The notes beneath the pieces are model-generated. The model was given only the letters and a program-made list of their open reading frames with translations, made no database searches and was not told the DNA's origin. Below are positions 7,556 through 64,000 of a stretch of 64,000 nucleotides of DNA, in pieces; positions within the stretch are counted from its first letter, which is position 1; every line of letters begins with the position of its first letter. The stretch is from a virus, in the IMG/VR virus record IMGVR_UViG_3300031251_000011, positions 11,765-75,764 of that record. One strand, 5' to 3'. The position numbers and the translations under genes are program-made.

Positions 7556-9150
7556 ACGCCGTCCTCCCCCTGTCCTCCGTGACTAAGCCCCGCCCCTTCG
7601 TTCCCTCCGAGATGCAGACCAGCTTCTTCAGCTGGGTGTCAGGGGGAAGGGGCTGCGCGATCCTTGAGGCCGTCGCCGGCTCCGGAAAGTCGACGACCAT
7701 CGTGCGGGCGCTGACCTTCATCCCGGAGTGGGTGCCCGTCCTGATCCTCGCCTTCAACGCGGCGATCGTCACGGAGATGAAGGAGAAAGTGGCGGCGCTC
7801 GGCAAGGAGCTGGGTCGCGACTTCCGCAACGTCCGGGTCAGCACCTTCCACTCGCTCGGCTTCGGCGCCTTGAAGAAGTTATTCAACTGCGACCATCGGG
7901 CCATCAAGACCGACCCCAACAAGCTCCTCACGCTCGCGGAGCAACTGTGGAGCGCCGAAACCGTCGAGCTGTACGGCTCGTTCGTCTGCGACCTCGTCAG
8001 CCTTGCGAAGGGTGAGGGCATCGGGACGGGCCTGTGCCACGACGAGACGCGGGAGTGGACACGGCTCATCGAACACCACGACCTCACGCACTCCAGCTAC
8101 GACGCCGACGACGAGACGGCCATCCGCCTCGCGCGCGAGCTGCTCAGCCACTCCACGACCGTGGCGAAGGACAAGCGCTGGATCGACTACGACGACATGC
8201 TGTATCTCCCGCTCAAGTGGAGGCTCAAGCACTTCGGGCAGGGCTGGGTGTTCATCGACGAGGCGCAGGACACCAACCCGGCTCGCAGAGCCATGGCCCG
8301 CGGCGCGCTGAAGGTCGGCGGCAGGCTCTGCGCCGTCGGCGACCGACGTCAGGCCATCTACGGCTTCACGGGAGCGAGCCACGACGCGCTCGATCTGATC
8401 GCGCAGGACTTCAACGCCACCAGGATGCCTCTGACGGTCTCCTACAGGTGCCCGCAGGCCGCGCTTGAGGCGGTCGGCCACCTCGCGCCGGAGTTCAGCG
8501 TACACGCGAGCGCCCCGCGCGGCTCCTACCGGAGGTACGTCACGTTGGACGACGCGCTCAAGGTCCTGAAGCCGACGGACGCGGTCGTGTGCCGGAACGT
8601 GGCCCCGCTCGTGACGCTGGCCTACGGCCTGATGCGTCGCAGGGTCGCCTGCCGCATCCTGGGCCGCGAGATCGGCGCGGGCCTGGTCAAGCTCGTGAAG
8701 TCGATGCGGGCGAAGACGCTGGACGCCATGCTTGAGAAGCTGGAGGCGTGGCGCGAGCGTGAGACGGCCAAGTTCCTGGCGCAGAAGAAGGAGCAGAAGG
8801 CCGACGCGGTCGACGACCGGGTGAACTGCGTCCTTGAGTTCGTGTCACAGCTCGATGAGAACTCGCGGACGGTGCCGAAGCTGATCGCGGCGATCGAGGC
8901 CACCTTCTCGAACGAGGACGGCTCGCCGCGGCTCACTCTCATGTCCTGTCACAAGGCGAAGGGGCTGGAGTTCGAGAGCGTGGCCCTGCTGCGGTCCGAC
9001 CTGATGCCCTCGCCCTGGGCGCGCCAGGAGTGGCAGCAGGAGCAGGAGCGCAACCTGGAGTACGTCGCCGGGACGCGGTTCAAGCTCAACATGATGGTGC
9101 TGAGCGACGACGGGTCGGAGAAGAAGGTCAAGAAAGAGGGCGGGCAGTGA
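7552..9150 (+). CDS. SF1 (UvrD/Rep-like) helicase
   Basis: Walker A AVAGSGKST; IDEAQD; VGDRRQAIYGF; SYRC; HKAKGLEF; YVAGTR. Confidence 0.92.
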   Translation: MNAVLPLSSVTKPRPFVPSEMQTSFFSWVSGGRGCAILEAVAGSGKSTTIVRALTFIPEWVPVLILAFNAAIVTEMKEKVAALGKELGRDFRNVRVSTFHSLGFGALKKLFNCDHRAIKTDPNKLLTLAEQLWSAETVELYGSFVCDLVSLAKGEGIGTGLCHDETREWTRLIEHHDLTHSSYDADDETAIRLARELLSHSTTVAKDKRWIDYDDMLYLPLKWRLKHFGQGWVFIDEAQDTNPARRAMARGALKVGGRLCAVGDRRQAIYGFTGASHDALDLIAQDFNATRMPLTVSYRCPQAALEAVGHLAPEFSVHASAPRGSYRRYVTLDDALKVLKPTDAVVCRNVAPLVTLAYGLMRRRVACRILGREIGAGLVKLVKSMRAKTLDAMLEKLEAWRERETAKFLAQKKEQKADAVDDRVNCVLEFVSQLDENSRTVPKLIAAIEATFSNEDGSPRLTLMSCHKAKGLEFESVALLRSDLMPSPWARQEWQQEQERNLEYVAGTRFKLNMMVLSDDGSEKKVKKEGGQ

Positions 9151-60586: not shown

Positions 60587-61270
60587 ATGAAAACATACCT
60601 CGTTCAGCTGACCCCCGCGGGCAAGACCCTCGTGCTTCCGTTCTCAGACCTGCCGGCTGCCAAGGCGATGGCCGCGGGTGAGTGGGAGGCCGGGACTCGC
60701 CTCTACACCCTGCAGGGCGCCAACGACCTCGCCACCGCCTCCTCCGCGGAGCTGGTCGCCCTCCACAACGGCCTCCTCCCGGAGGGCGGTAACAAAACAT
60801 CAAATTTCGATGATCTGAAAAAAGGTGCGAAGAAGGTGTTTGCAATGGTCCTGAAAGCCTGTATCACTTCTCCCGTTCCCGGAGATCAGGCGCCGGCCGC
60901 GGGGACCGAGGAAAGCATCCCGCCGGCGTCAGTCAAACCGAAGAGGCAGAAGACCATGGCTACCAAGACGAAGAAGACCCCCGCGAAGAAGGCCGCCAAG
61001 AAGGCCGCCAAGAAGTCCGCGACCCCCCGCGTGAAGGCCCCCGCCTTCATCGAGATCGGCAACGGCGCCCCGCCGGCCGGCACGACCTGCGGCCTGTTCA
61101 TCCGCTCGCTCATCATGAAGGGCGCGACGACCGAGGACATCCTCGCGAAGGTCAAGAAGCACTACCCCGACAGCACCGCGAAGGGCTCGGACGTCAGCTG
61201 GAACCGGCAGAAGCTCCGGGCGGACGGCATCAAGAACGTGCCGGACGCGCGGGTCGCGAAGGAGGAGTAG
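60587..61270 (+). CDS. Putative DNA-binding protein (Lys/Ala-rich linker + C-terminal helical domain)
   Basis: 'TPAKKAAKKAAKK'; C-terminal domain resembles the MTase C-terminus. Confidence 0.65.
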   Translation: MKTYLVQLTPAGKTLVLPFSDLPAAKAMAAGEWEAGTRLYTLQGANDLATASSAELVALHNGLLPEGGNKTSNFDDLKKGAKKVFAMVLKACITSPVPGDQAPAAGTEESIPPASVKPKRQKTMATKTKKTPAKKAAKKAAKKSATPRVKAPAFIEIGNGAPPAGTTCGLFIRSLIMKGATTEDILAKVKKHYPDSTAKGSDVSWNRQKLRADGIKNVPDARVAKEE

Positions 61271-61304: not shown

Positions 61305-61336
61305 AAGGCCCCCTTAACCGGGGGCCTTCGTCGTTT
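61305..61336 (+). terminator. Intrinsic terminator
   Basis: AAGGCCCCC-TTAACC-GGGGGCCTT followed by CGTCGTTT. Confidence 0.6.
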
Positions 61337-61347
61337 GTGGGGTAAGC

Positions 61348-61650
61348 ATGAACATGAAGACTGCGAAATGGACCGCGAAACCCAACAGGCCGGGGCAGAC
61401 CGCCGGCTGGACCCTGCTGCGTGACGGCGTCCCGCTGATCCGACTCGGGCGCGTCATTGAGACGAACCCGGGATACCTGACGCTGGAGGAGTTCGCCGCG
61501 ACGGCGCACGAGATCGCGGACAGGCTGAGCGGGAGGACAGGGCCTCCGGCCGCTCCCGGATACGAACAGCCCTACGACCCGGAGCGCTGCCTCAACTGCG
61601 GGGGCTTTCATGGTTTAGGGCTTCCCTGCCCGGACCTGGTGCCGCGATGA
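61348..61650 (+). CDS. Hypothetical protein with a C-terminal CxxC..H..C motif
   Basis: ATGA overlap with the glycosylase gene. Confidence 0.55.
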   Translation: MNMKTAKWTAKPNRPGQTAGWTLLRDGVPLIRLGRVIETNPGYLTLEEFAATAHEIADRLSGRTGPPAAPGYEQPYDPERCLNCGGFHGLGLPCPDLVPR

Positions 61651-62144
61651 CACTTCGCAAGCCGTACGTCCTCCTCTTCCAGGAGACCCTTGCGCGCAGG
61701 CGCCCGAAGCACTGGAAGTTCTGGCTGCTGGTCGGCTGCGTCATGGTGAACCGCGCGAGGTGGGAGGAGGCGCAGCCGATCCACGCTGGCCTGATGGGCG
61801 CGTGGCCGTCGCCCGAGGGGCTGCTTGCCGGGCTCTCCCTGGAGGAGACGCAGGACGAGATGCGCCCGCTCGGCTTCCCGGTCAGCAGGGCTCGCGTCAT
61901 CAGGAACCTCGCGTTCAGGTGGCTCAAGGAGCCGCTGACGAACTACAAGGAGGTCCAGTCGGTGGTCGGCCTTGGGCAGTACGCCGCGGACAGCTGGGCC
62001 ATCTTCGTTGACGGCAAGCGGAACGTGAAACCGAAGGACAAGCGCCTGCGGGAGTTCCTGCGGGAGGAGAAACGTATCAAGGCCGAACGTGCCACCAGGC
62101 GAGCGGCGATCGACAAAGCAGAGTTCATGAGGGAGAGCGCGTGA
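61647..62144 (+). CDS. MBD4-like HhH-GPD DNA glycosylase
   Basis: 'LFQETL..W..LLVGCVMVNRA..WPSPE..RPLGF..RAR.I..GLGQYAADSWAIF..VKPKDKRL'. Confidence 0.82.
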   Translation: MTLRKPYVLLFQETLARRRPKHWKFWLLVGCVMVNRARWEEAQPIHAGLMGAWPSPEGLLAGLSLEETQDEMRPLGFPVSRARVIRNLAFRWLKEPLTNYKEVQSVVGLGQYAADSWAIFVDGKRNVKPKDKRLREFLREEKRIKAERATRRAAIDKAEFMRESA

Positions 62145-63565
62145 TGGCAAAACTTACGGCGATAGCTGCGGACGTCTTCGCGGGCGGCTTCTCGCTGGGA
62201 GTGCAGAAGCACTTCAACGTGCTGGCGCACCTGGAGGAGAGCAGTTACGGCGTGGCGACGGCGCGGCGCAACTTCCCGAAAATACCGATCCACGTCGGCG
62301 TCGACAACTGGCCGCTGGACTTCTTCAAGGACAAGGTCGACTTCGTGTTCGCCAACCCTCCGTGCGCGCCGTTCTCGGTAGCCGGTTACACGAAGACGCG
62401 GGGCACAGACAAGTGGCTCACTGATCCGCGGCTCGCCTGCACGCTCACGTGCGCCAACCTCCGGAAGACGCTGCGCCCGAAGGTCTACGCCACGGAGAGC
62501 GTCACGCAGGCCTGGAGCAAAGGTCGCGAGTTCATCGAGAACATGGTGAAGGAGGCGGCCGACGACGGCTACGCCACGACCGTGCTTCTGCACGACGCGC
62601 AGCACCTGGGCCTCCCACAGGCCCGGAAGCGCGTGTTCTTCGTCTTCCACCGTATCGGCTTCTCCCCGCGCGCTCCGAACTGGGCGCCGCCTCCGGTTCC
62701 GCTCGACGTGCTGCCGGACAAGCCGGTCGGGGAACCGATGATCGAGAAGCCGGACTACTTCACGGCGAAACGTCTGGCCAAGGTGCTGCCTGGCGAGCGG
62801 CTGAGCAAGTTCTGGGAGCGCACGCACCCAGACGAGAGCAAGTGGAAGCGGAACGCGCAGGGCGGCGTGGCGGGCAGGCCGGCGTTCGGTCATTGCCGGC
62901 TGCCGGTCGACAGGCCGAGCGGAGCCACGGTTGGCTATTGCCTGGCGCACCCCGTCGAGAACCGCTTCCTCTCCACCGAGGAGATACAGCTGCTGTCGGG
63001 CTTCCCGGCTGACTTCGTGTTCACGCCCAACGGCAAGAACGCCAGAGCTGCGGAGATAGCCCGCGGCGTCTGTCCGAAGGTCGGCGAGTGGCTGGCAGCG
63101 TCGGTGAAGGCAGCCATAGACGCTGACGCGCCGCTCGCTGACACCAAGCTGGTGGAATACGATTACAGGCGGCCGCCCGTTGACGCGGATGACGTGCAGC
63201 GCCGCGAGGTGCCGTTCGGGGAGACGTCCACGGAGCCTGCCACAGTGAGGTCAGGATCGCCGAGGCAGCCCCGCCTGCCGCGCACCGAGGTCCTGCAGGG
63301 CGAGCCGGCGAAGCCAAGGCCGGCGAAGTTCCCGGTGCCGAAGGCTGACCTCGGTTCGGGCAACTACATCAGGCTGCTGTTGACGATGGAGGTCTTCACG
63401 ACCGAGGAGATCGTGACCGCGGTGCATGAACATTTCAAGACGAGCAAGGCCACGGCGGCCGACGTGAGCTACCACCGAGGGAAGATGAAGGAAGCGGGCG
63501 CGCCTGTGCGCGTGGTCCGCGAGACATCGCAGGGGAGGCGGCTGGCGCCGCTGAAAGGAGCGTAG
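62141..63565 (+). CDS. C5 cytosine DNA methyltransferase with an extra C-terminal domain
   Basis: FAGG (motif I), NPPCAPFS (IV), ESV (VI variant), PQARKR (VIII), HP.ENR.LS..E....GFP (IX), RGV.P (X). Confidence 0.85.
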   Translation: MMAKLTAIAADVFAGGFSLGVQKHFNVLAHLEESSYGVATARRNFPKIPIHVGVDNWPLDFFKDKVDFVFANPPCAPFSVAGYTKTRGTDKWLTDPRLACTLTCANLRKTLRPKVYATESVTQAWSKGREFIENMVKEAADDGYATTVLLHDAQHLGLPQARKRVFFVFHRIGFSPRAPNWAPPPVPLDVLPDKPVGEPMIEKPDYFTAKRLAKVLPGERLSKFWERTHPDESKWKRNAQGGVAGRPAFGHCRLPVDRPSGATVGYCLAHPVENRFLSTEEIQLLSGFPADFVFTPNGKNARAAEIARGVCPKVGEWLAASVKAAIDADAPLADTKLVEYDYRRPPVDADDVQRREVPFGETSTEPATVRSGSPRQPRLPRTEVLQGEPAKPRPAKFPVPKADLGSGNYIRLLLTMEVFTTEEIVTAVHEHFKTSKATAADVSYHRGKMKEAGAPVRVVRETSQGRRLAPLKGA

Positions 63566-63568
63566 GTT

Positions 63569-63793
63569 ATGGCGAGAGGTCTGAAGGTTCCGGCGCACCT
63601 GGTGCCGGTTACGACCGAGCGGAAGAGCCCGGTCAGGAGCGATCGCACACACGGCATGAACGACGAGTTCGTCGAAGAATTGCTGTCGAAGGTCTCGAAG
63701 CTGCAGAGCGCCGGCATCAGCAACGCGACCATCCTGGGCGTGCTCGGCGACGTGAAGTTCAACATACCGAAACCTAAGAAGCCGAGGGCATGA
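63569..63793 (+). CDS. Hypothetical protein
   Basis: Follows the MTase; ATGA overlap downstream. Confidence 0.55.
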   Translation: MARGLKVPAHLVPVTTERKSPVRSDRTHGMNDEFVEELLSKVSKLQSAGISNATILGVLGDVKFNIPKPKKPRA

Positions 63794-64000
63794 CGATGGC
63801 CGAACCCGACGACAGCGCCGACTTCGAGAAGCGCCTCACGTGGAACAAGGGCGACCTGAAGGTCTACGGGCCGGACGGCAAGGAGGTCGACGTCAGCACT
63901 CTGAAGGAGGAGGAAGACGAAGAGGAGGACAACCCGCTGGCGGCCTTCCCCCTGTCCCCCGCGGCAGAGGAGCCCGAGGCTGACAGCGCCGGCCCGACCG
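63790..64000 (+). CDS. Acidic hypothetical protein, 3'-truncated
   Basis: Frame stays open to the window end. Confidence 0.5.
   Translation, partial: MTMAEPDDSADFEKRLTWNKGDLKVYGPDGKEVDVSTLKEEEDEEEDNPLAAFPLSPAAEEPEADSAGPT

Follow-up and report, generated by a model that had tools for sequence, protein, structure and literature searches.

A phage gene for an MBD4-type DNA glycosylase overlaps a C5-methyltransferase gene and belongs to a viral family associated with modified cytosine

Introduction

Cytosine, 5mC and 5hmC deaminate to uracil, thymine and 5-hydroxymethyluracil (5hmU), and MBD4 is viewed as a means by which eukaryotes counter the mutagenic effect of 5-methylcytosine. What would an enzyme of this kind do in a virus? 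The question is raised by a locus in an uncultured phage (76 kb, 65% GC; IMG/VR record IMGVR_UViG_3300031251_000011), of which a stretch of 64,000 nucleotides is the window analysed here. A sequence-only reading had described an MBD4-type glycosylase translationally coupled to an atypical C5-methyltransferase, and had proposed that the two form a phage analogue of Dcm/Vsr protecting a methylated genome. Our literature search found no paper describing phage MBD4-like enzymes.

Results

The two open reading frames and their overlap are as originally drawn: on the plus strand, the glycosylase gene occupies 61647-62144 (165 aa, ATG start) and the methyltransferase gene 62141-63565 (474 aa). Their third-position GC contents, 0.90 and 0.87, are typical of coding sequence in a 65% GC genome. 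The shorter protein belongs to the MBD4-type, cluster-free HhH-GPD glycosylases. Every motif string previously listed for it is present (LFQETL, LLVGCVMVNR, PLGFPVSRA, GLGQYAADSWAIF and VKPKDKRL), and the stated absence of an FeS cluster holds, since a protein with a single Cys cannot carry a 4Fe-4S cluster. Searching the PDB with the single sequence returned significant matches to MBD4 chains only (E 1e-5, entire domain). With a profile of 18 sequences, MBD4 scored 92 bits (2.3e-25), again over the entire domain, compared with 47 bits (1.7e-11) for EndoIII, 45 bits (6.8e-11) for Mig and 34 bits (1.4e-7) for MutY, whose alignments all end short of the catalytic Asp; by profile search the protein is closer to MBD4 than to EndoIII, MutY, Mig, AlkA or OGG. 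The fold supports the same grouping. The AF2 model (pLDDT 93.9) is a compact, all-helical HhH-GPD domain, distinct from the Vsr endonuclease fold, and its best 16 PDB matches in Foldseek are all MBD4 (target TM-score 0.76-0.82, rmsd 2.5 A), several of them G:T or G:5hmU complexes. A core domain (residues 10-137) leads into a long C-terminal helix (132-164). The protein corresponds to the glycosylase domain alone and not to full-length MBD4.

The key residues of the phage enzyme are Q12, N35-R36, L75-G76-F77, Y112 and D131. In mouse MBD4 the catalytic Asp is D534 in PEDHKL, 20 residues past Y514 of GIGKY (PMC3458566), and our alignment pairs mouse Q423, Y514, D534 and L537 with phage Q12, Y112, D131 and L134. 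The catalytic Asp is thus D131, in V.P.D..L, and not the residue of the DS motif to which the role had been given. In the mouse enzyme these four residues contact O2/N3/O4 of T or 5hmU and shut out cytosines, with Y514 hydrogen-bonding O2 and Q423 reading O2/N3 of T, U or 5hmU (PMC3458566). The 18-sequence alignment shows no variation at any of the four; among 56 diverse homologues the same holds for D131 and L134, and Q12 and Y112 are conserved in at least 90%. Y112, in GLGQY, places Tyr rather than Lys at the HhH position, the monofunctional type. N35-R36 is present at the Arg finger, the MBD4 wedge residue Leu (L482) is replaced by F77, and members of the Xp12 group have Leu where the Arg finger (MBD4 R442) would be. 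Because of these two differences, DNA handling may differ from that of MBD4.

The pocket bears directly on one alternative, in which the enzyme serves self/non-self discrimination by excising unmodified C or another canonical base from host or unmodified phage DNA. T4-type phages destroy cytosine-containing DNA, and the gene studied here lies among early and replication genes. However, the Gln, Tyr and main-chain contacts by which MBD4 accepts only the thymine/uracil Watson-Crick edge and excludes cytosines are conserved, and we regard this role as highly improbable.

The junction of the two genes (62131-62146, plus strand) comprises an SD-like GGGAGAG (62131-62137), a GTG (62141), the TGA stop of the glycosylase gene (62142-62144) and an ATG (62144), the stop overlapping both potential starts. 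The claim of translational coupling is well supported by this arrangement. In the closest IMG/VR relative, L162, whose methyltransferase is 63% identical, the glycosylase gene is missing while the SD and ATG of the methyltransferase gene are kept, and therefore 62144 is the likelier methyltransferase start. An ATGA-type overlap likewise joins the two genes in another metagenome contig, which we had considered as a candidate fusion and rejected, since it holds two genes in different, overlapping frames. The overlap suggests that glycosylase and methyltransferase would be made together, like dcm-vsr in E. coli. Prediction of a complex between the two proteins scored 0.15 (mark 0.32), which we count neither way.

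The flanking sequence (all features on the plus strand) shows what accompanies the glycosylase gene. Upstream, a gene for a lysine-rich protein of 227 aa (60587-61270), which has a counterpart at the equivalent position in Xp12-like phages (matches in L001, L002 and others), is followed just 3' by a terminator-like hairpin (61307-61336; GGCCCCC/GGGGGCC) with a T-rich tail. This hairpin marks the upstream edge of a segment of ~870 bp that is missing from L162, where the equivalent hairpin lies directly 5' of the methyltransferase ribosome-binding site. Within the segment, a 100-aa ORF (61348-61650), whose stop overlaps the glycosylase start (ATGA, 61647-61650), goes with the glycosylase gene in that L162 lacks both; Pfam and PHROG searches detected no family for it, and no similarity was found to the 76-aa ORF 5' of the Xp12 glycosylase gene. 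Downstream, a 74-aa ORF (63569-63793) with no Pfam or PHROG match begins 4 nt past the methyltransferase stop and probably shares its transcription unit.

The partner is indeed an atypical C5 cytosine methyltransferase, as had been proposed. It matches PF00145 (2.5e-22, 80 bits, cut-off 22), and alignment with M.HaeIII reveals PPC (motif IV), ESV in place of ENV, and QARKR (motif VIII, QxRxR). Neither the canonical ENV of motif VI nor the FxGxG of motif I is present; read against M.HaeIII and M.HhaI, motif I is FAGG, one residue under the canonical form. ESV and NPPCA are invariant in 24 homologues with identities down to 33%, defining a lineage, and it is plausible from sequence that the enzyme is catalytically competent, since ESV keeps the Glu. 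The catalytic domain (~residues 1-335) is followed by a proline-rich linker and a C-terminal domain of ~45 aa (window positions about 63380-63520), which is common to the 227-aa protein (E 6e-9, shared PHROGs). Among 50,697 phage records, tblastn found nothing that matches the methyltransferase.

A search for related loci matched nothing with the single glycosylase sequence as query; sub-alignments did find such loci. The family is sizeable: ~2,300 clusters (50% identity) reach E 1e-10 or better against the glycosylase profile. The glycosylase's clade is all but missing from a set of 185,579 prokaryote genomes, and tblastn across the 50,697 phage records found homologues only in Xp12 and its relatives, barring two weak matches of non-phage type. 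In Xp12 the glycosylase gene is the first of a cluster that continues with a hydrolase, a ThyA homologue, a deaminase and DHFR; this ThyA homologue produces 5-methyl-dCMP, and Xp12 DNA is fully 5mC (bioRxiv 10.1101/2024.12.05.627091). Homologues in the relatives of Xp12 are likewise located in the cluster for 5mC synthesis. The proposed connection to cytosine C5 modification is thereby strongly backed. In the Xp12-type clade (motif YAADSWA) a ThyA homologue flanks the gene in 42 of the 46 loci that could be judged, and a ThyA-family gene is present in every one of the 14 near-complete viral records with the glycosylase. Where E. coli has N177, a position associated with cytosine specificity, the divergent ThyA copies of jumbo phages have Asp. 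The constant companion of the glycosylase is thus a cytosine-specific ThyA homologue. That of the phage studied here bears a 5-hydroxymethyl-dCMP synthase signature, and for this reason the main base protected may be 5hmC rather than the 5mC made by the methyltransferase.

Pairing with methyltransferases recurs but is not general. It is seen here, in three relatives, with an unrelated methyltransferase of the ENV type as neighbour and, in one case, as a fusion: the two genes are adjacent in G004 and G016, and P0022 is a true fusion of the glycosylase to a canonical ENV/PCQ methyltransferase. A further pair, P0002 and P0155, appears to lie on one contig, as both sit on 30,747 bp with identical sources. 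On the family tree, the two genes came to be neighbours or fused in at least three distinct branches, all with good support. A 1,197-aa open frame in another locus, L022, was rejected as a fusion: third-position GC puts the coding start near position 7,950, and the long frame is an artefact of high GC. Among the ESV/NPPCA methyltransferase lineage the glycosylase was found at none of 80 loci and in none of 49 whole phage records (positive control 5/5), and just 2 of 66 glycosylase-bearing viral records have any C5-methyltransferase. The expectation that the pairing would be conserved across phages is not borne out by these counts. The glycosylase is dispensable, since L162 and all 49 searched records of the methyltransferase lineage do without it.

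This patchiness is what a general anti-mutator or counter-defence enzyme might show, one that repairs U:G and T:G mismatches arising from host antiviral deaminases or replication errors and whose adjacency to the methyltransferase is incidental. Compared with L162 the gene forms an accessory insertion, it is missing from most relatives that have the methyltransferase, and MBD4 itself works fastest on G:U (PMC3458566). Against this idea, the distribution is non-random: the glycosylase occurs almost always with cytosine-specific ThyA homologues, is missing from the other cultured phage records and has joined C5-methyltransferases repeatedly. We consider it an unlikely explanation.

A role inside the modification pathway is hinted at by family members that are fused or adjacent to the helical domain of a 5-hmdU DNA kinase (HMUDK). 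P0071 and P0081 are such fusions, and in G004 an HMUDK-domain gene lies between the glycosylase and methyltransferase genes. Thymidine hypermodification is known to be carried out by HhH glycosylase-like enzymes paired with 5-HMUDK kinases (PMC5889632, PMC8989533). Our enzyme could by analogy act like the aGPT-Pplases and attach a group to an activated 5-hydroxymethyl pyrimidine, or carry out some other processing step, and the hydroxymethylase signature of the phage's ThyA homologue would suit such a task. However, no HMUDK-domain gene was found in the studied genome, Xp12 or Donnerlittchen, and the plain 5mC of Xp12 DNA offers no target for transfer. The catalytic Asp, Tyr and Gln of MBD4 are conserved in the glycosylase, its Pfam search returned no family besides HhH-GPD, and hence no aGPT-Pplase match, and tblastn revealed no tie to ViI, M6, phiW-14 or SP10. 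A search of the phage's early genes found neither a glycosyltransferase nor a TET enzyme. Participation in hypermodification therefore seems improbable to us.

Discussion

Altogether, the proposal of a Dcm/Vsr analogue survives in its MBD4 family assignment, its translational coupling and its link to C5 modification; it fails in its choice of catalytic Asp and in casting the methyltransferase as the conserved partner. What we observed, an MBD4-family protein with its pocket and catalytic residues conserved, a gene that overlaps the methyltransferase gene and a set of genomic associations, leads us to favor a model in which the glycosylase probably repairs deaminated 5mC or 5hmC in modified phage DNA. 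We judge removal of deaminated modified cytosines the most likely function because the enzyme's relatives are nearly confined to phages that build 5mC or 5hmC; the substrate range, the base composition of virion DNA and the repair role itself are what we infer.

In this scenario the client of the glycosylase would be the phage's own C5-modified cytosine DNA, to which the phage encodes two candidate routes. The first, pre-replicative, comprises a MazG-type pyrophosphohydrolase, a dNMP kinase, the cytosine-specific ThyA homologue, a dCMP deaminase and ThyX; the second, post-replicative, is the C5-methyltransferase encoded by the overlapping gene. The glycosylase would flip and excise T, U or 5hmU opposite G, opening base-excision repair that would be finished by an AP endonuclease from either host or phage, together with PolA of the phage and a ligase. 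Relatives of the neighbouring deaminase act on 5mC and 5hmC in single-stranded DNA in vitro, and this deaminase may therefore itself create mismatches that the glycosylase clears.

The logic of the coupling is incomplete, since full replacement of cytosine before replication would leave little substrate for the methyltransferase. A further reading, which we rate as rather unlikely, is that the phage carries dual marks, with pre-replicative 5hmC and post-replicative 5mC, or that the methyltransferase further derivatises 5hmC. The ESV/NPPCA enzyme would then be no ordinary orphan methylase but a core part of a co-evolving module, widespread in phages, with MazG, dNMP kinase, the ThyA homologue with the 5hm-dCMP-synthase signature and deaminase; in a minority of these phages, an MBD4-type glycosylase would be added that keeps deamination products of the two marks in check. 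If true, this would constitute a previously undescribed dual cytosine-modification system with repair built in; our literature search on dual cytosine modification yielded nothing relevant.

These findings extend the MBD4 catalytic domain to a sizeable viral family linked to phages whose cytosine is replaced or methylated, among them the textbook all-5mC phage Xp12. Under the favored repair model, they suggest an answer to how phages in which one third of the bases are 5mC or 5hmC escape C-to-T decay, and they bear on the origin of the MBD4 domain. Xp12 and AXL1 provide genetically tractable systems for testing the glycosylase's role. In addition, small Fe-S-free enzymes predicted to act on T:G and 5hmU:G could serve methylation sequencing.

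The structural comparator is the glycosylase domain of mammalian MBD4/MED1 (PDB 1NGN, 4EVV, 4EW0, 4E9E-H, 6VJW), to which the phage enzyme is 26% identical and with which it shares the compact Fe-S-free HhH-GPD fold (target TM-score about 0.8), the catalytic Asp, the Tyr at the HhH position, the Gln that reads T/U/5hmU, the Asn-Arg pair at the finger and the PLG of the wedge loop. The biological logic, clearing deaminated 5mC or 5hmC, would also be common to both. Unlike MBD4, the viral protein stands alone, with neither a methyl-CpG-binding domain nor a linker, has an additional C-terminal helix and a Phe instead of Leu wedge, and operates from a phage cytosine-modification operon rather than in the context of CpG methylation.

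The nearest cultured homologues, Xanthomonas phage Xp12 QNN97216 and Stenotrophomonas phage AXL1 gp65, are 41-44% identical; existing annotations call them hypothetical, as in Xp12, or else an ENDO3c domain or endonuclease III protein, and a function could not be assigned to AXL1 gp65 (PMC9206674). 5mC is known to replace C in Xp12 DNA and is suspected to do so in that of AXL1. Like the gene studied here, theirs lie 3' of PolA, a helicase and a protein with the shared small C-terminal domain. They differ in that the genes that follow encode a hydrolase, a dCMP methylase, a deaminase and DHFR, in records without a DNA methyltransferase, and in having Leu in place of the Arg finger.

Two prokaryotic systems come closest in concept. 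In E. coli Dcm-Vsr, overlapping frames co-express a C5-methyltransferase with a corrector of the T:G mismatches that methylation causes. The gene order is opposite, however, and Vsr is a sequence-specific endonuclease of unrelated fold whereas the phage repair enzyme is a glycosylase in which sequence specificity is not evident, so the resemblance is functional only. Mig.MthI, encoded next to M.MthTI on plasmid pFV1 of Methanothermobacter (PDB 1KEA), is likewise an HhH-GPD T:G glycosylase adjoining a C5-methyltransferase, but it is a member of the EndoIII/MutY branch with a 4Fe-4S cluster, scoring about 45 bits below MBD4 against the family profile with a target TM-score of 0.43. On the reading that we favor, the phage glycosylase would represent a fresh version of the idea embodied in Dcm-Vsr and Mig.

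Results

The IMG/VR virus record, rated complete by CheckV, spans 75,764 bp, of which the window covers bases 11765-75764. Its final ~140 bp (window 63861-64000) duplicate genome positions 1-140 and the genome is therefore effectively circular; despite this repeat, the IMG/VR entry describes it as linear and without end repeats. A terminator-like hairpin (61307-61336) and, downstream of it, four tightly packed ORFs lie on the plus strand: a 100-aa ORF (61348-61650), the 165-aa glycosylase (61647-62144), the 474-aa methyltransferase (62141-63565) and a 74-aa ORF (63569-63793). The 100-aa and 165-aa ORFs overlap by ATGA, and the glycosylase overlaps the methyltransferase at GTGATG, with GGGAGAG upstream. 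These coordinates, the GTGATG junction and the third-position GC (0.90 for the glycosylase and 0.87 for the methyltransferase) bear out the overlapping pair that a sequence-only reading of this DNA had interpreted as a phage methylate-and-repair module, an MBD4-type analogue of Dcm/Vsr.

Pfam finds only HhH-GPD in the 165-aa protein, at 17 bits and below threshold. When this single sequence was searched against all PDB sequences, MBD4 glycosylase domains were the sole significant matches, aligned end-to-end (E 1e-5). A profile built from 18 phage homologues matched MBD4 at 2.3e-25 (92 bits), whereas EndoIII, Mig and MutY scored 1.7e-11, 6.8e-11 and 1.4e-7 in alignments that end short of the catalytic Asp. 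The AlphaFold model is confident (pLDDT 93.9); MBD4 fills its top 16 Foldseek places (target TM-score 0.76-0.82, rmsd 2.5 Å), with clusterless MutY, Mig and EndoIII ranked below at target TM-scores ≤0.45. Both the profile and Foldseek results favor a grouping with MBD4 over EndoIII/MutY, the placement that the sequence-only reading had said in advance would count against it. The protein has a single Cys and therefore lacks an Fe-S cluster, again as first proposed.

Functional residues were mapped onto mouse MBD4-DNA structures (PMC3458566), with numbering consistent with the chain indices of the PDB alignment. Q12 corresponds to Q423, which reads O2/N3 of T or 5hmU (PMC3458566), N35-R36 to the finger N441-R442, L75-G76-F77 to the wedge loop L480-G-L482, Y112 to Y514 at the HhH lysine position, and D131-K-R-L134 to D534-x-K-L537. 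Q12, Y112, D131 and L134 are all invariant in the 18-sequence set; across 56 diverse homologues D131 and L134 remain invariant and Q12 and Y112 are at least 90% conserved. The catalytic Asp is not in the DS motif, where it had initially been placed, but in V.P.D..L (D131, mouse D534). Glycosylases of the Xp12 group (L011-L021, Xp12 and Donnerlittchen in the 18-sequence alignment) have Asn-Leu in place of the Asn-Arg finger of MBD4 and our phage, and base flipping in all-5mC phages may differ because of this substitution.

An exhaustive HMMER search recovered 7,941 clusters at E≤1e-3 and 2,278 at E≤1e-10, mostly stand-alone proteins 120-200 aa long. A screen of 50,697 deposited phage genomes placed homologues only in Xp12 and related phages (Xanthomonas phages, Stenotrophomonas AXL_1 and Janthinobacterium Donnerlittchen), bar two weak matches of another kind. 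Xp12 is the classic phage in which all cytosines are 5mC; 5-methyl-dCMP is the demonstrated product of its ThyA homologue, and the class of the adjacent deaminase favors 5mC and 5hmC, single-stranded DNA included (bioRxiv 10.1101/2024.12.05.627091). The Xp12 neighbourhood map in that preprint leaves the glycosylase gene unmentioned (bioRxiv 10.1101/2024.12.05.627091), AXL1 gp65 has been reported as an ENDO3c-domain protein, otherwise only in Xp12, of no assignable function (PMC9206674), and our literature searches turned up no account of phage MBD4-type enzymes.

Xp12 and dozens of uncultured relatives share the order PolA, helicase, a few genes, glycosylase, HAD/MazG hydrolase, ThyA homologue, deaminase and DHFR. 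A ThyA homologue flanks the gene at 42 of the 46 judged loci in this Xp12-type clade, which is all but missing from 185,579 prokaryote genomes (sole match, one 1.6-kb MAG contig). Another clade, recognizable by G[VI]GxYAxDSW, comprises 172 viral contigs, of which many come from jumbo or T4-like phages, and its complete members carry a divergent copy of ThyA that has Asp at the positions of E. coli L143 and N177, the dCMP hydroxymethylase signature (PMC13326640). All 14 near-complete glycosylase-bearing viral records contain a ThyA-family gene. In one 392-aa homologue (P0056) the MBD4-like domain is fused with a MazG-type pyrophosphohydrolase and with the N-terminal domain of a dATP/dGTP diphosphohydrolase, partners that are neighbour genes in Xp12-type clusters.

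Onward round the circle from the methyltransferase, our phage encodes an Alt-like ADP-ribosyltransferase, MazG-type pyrophosphohydrolase, P-loop dNMP kinase, ThyA homologue, dCMP deaminase, ThyX and PolA. The first, a 609-aa protein just past the window end (genome 172-2001, locus L006), separates the methyltransferase operon from the nucleotide module both here and in L162, the closest IMG/VR relative. The ThyA homologue carries RDTPC and PYDV, with Asp at the L143 and N177 positions, and keeps D169; it shares just 25% identity with the Xp12 methylase, and in the PDB it matches the CMP hydroxymethylase MilA best. By published criteria (PMC13326640) its residues point to 5-hydroxymethyl-dCMP synthesis, and our phage probably replaces cytosine before replication. 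DHFR was not found in this genome, and the early genes scanned included neither a glycosyltransferase nor a TET enzyme. The ThyA homologue (L010:12122-13552) of G004, a complete phage of 73.6 kb, matches in two pieces ~800 bp apart within one long open frame; the gap could be an intein or other insertion.

The 474-aa protein (METHYLTRANSFERASE) is a C5-methyltransferase (PF00145, 2.5e-22) that aligns with M.HaeIII at its catalytic Cys, at the Glu of motif VI and across motif VIII. ESV in place of ENV, already flagged as atypical, proved invariant in its lineage, as did NPPCA in place of PCQ, down to 33% identity. A ~45-residue domain (63380-63520) ends the methyltransferase and also an upstream lysine-rich 227-aa protein (60587-61270; E 6e-9); it recurs at an equivalent position in the Xp12 'TolA protein' (L001:4159-4320). 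Unexpectedly, the ESV lineage is tightly linked to a nucleotide-modification module. Across its 80 loci (L162-L241), a ThyA homologue of our phage's type lies on the same strand in 57, with a median separation of ~2 kb; the hydroxymethylase-type Asp/Asp signature is present in 51 of these 57. In uncultured phages the methyltransferase is a conserved neighbour of the module made up of MazG, the dNMP kinase, the ThyA homologue and the dCMP deaminase, a DNA methyltransferase embedded in a pre-replicative cytosine-modification module.

Pairing with the glycosylase is a minority arrangement, although it recurs. The overlapping pair is found on metagenome contig L125 (44% and 45% identity), P0002 and P0155 (83% and 71% identical) apparently lie together on one 30.7-kb contig, and the two genes are adjacent in G004. 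In another viral record, G016, the glycosylase divergently adjoins an unrelated ENV-type methyltransferase, and P0022 is a true fusion with a canonical PCQ/ENV enzyme. A maximum-likelihood tree distributes these cases over at least three distinct groups, each well supported, so the association has arisen repeatedly. It is not generally conserved: any C5-methyltransferase occurs in just 2 of the 66 viral records that carry the glycosylase, and the glycosylase in none of the 80 ESV loci or 49 whole records (positive control, 5/5). L162, with a 63% identical methyltransferase, keeps the hairpin, ribosome-binding site and ATG and lacks ~870 bp carrying the 100-aa ORF and glycosylase; the glycosylase is thus an accessory cassette placed exactly before the methyltransferase.

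Discussion

We consider it probable that the 165-aa protein, a putative T/U/5hmU:G mismatch glycosylase that would be co-expressed with the methyltransferase, safeguards a genome rich in C5-modified cytosine. The main rival model is that it acts within hypermodification. Family members P0071 and P0081 are fused to a 5-hmdU DNA kinase helical domain, and in G004 a gene for this domain (PF18723, 4e-23; L010:8386-9282) lies between glycosylase and methyltransferase; these links hint that some relatives carry out chemistry on hydroxymethyl pyrimidines after replication. However, the domain is absent from our phage and Xp12, and the catalytic and base-reading residues of MBD4 are conserved in the glycosylase. 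The most novel thread is what the methyltransferase contributes alongside probable pre-replicative cytosine replacement. In the mismatch-repair model that we favor, the glycosylase would be co-expressed with its methyltransferase as Vsr is with Dcm.
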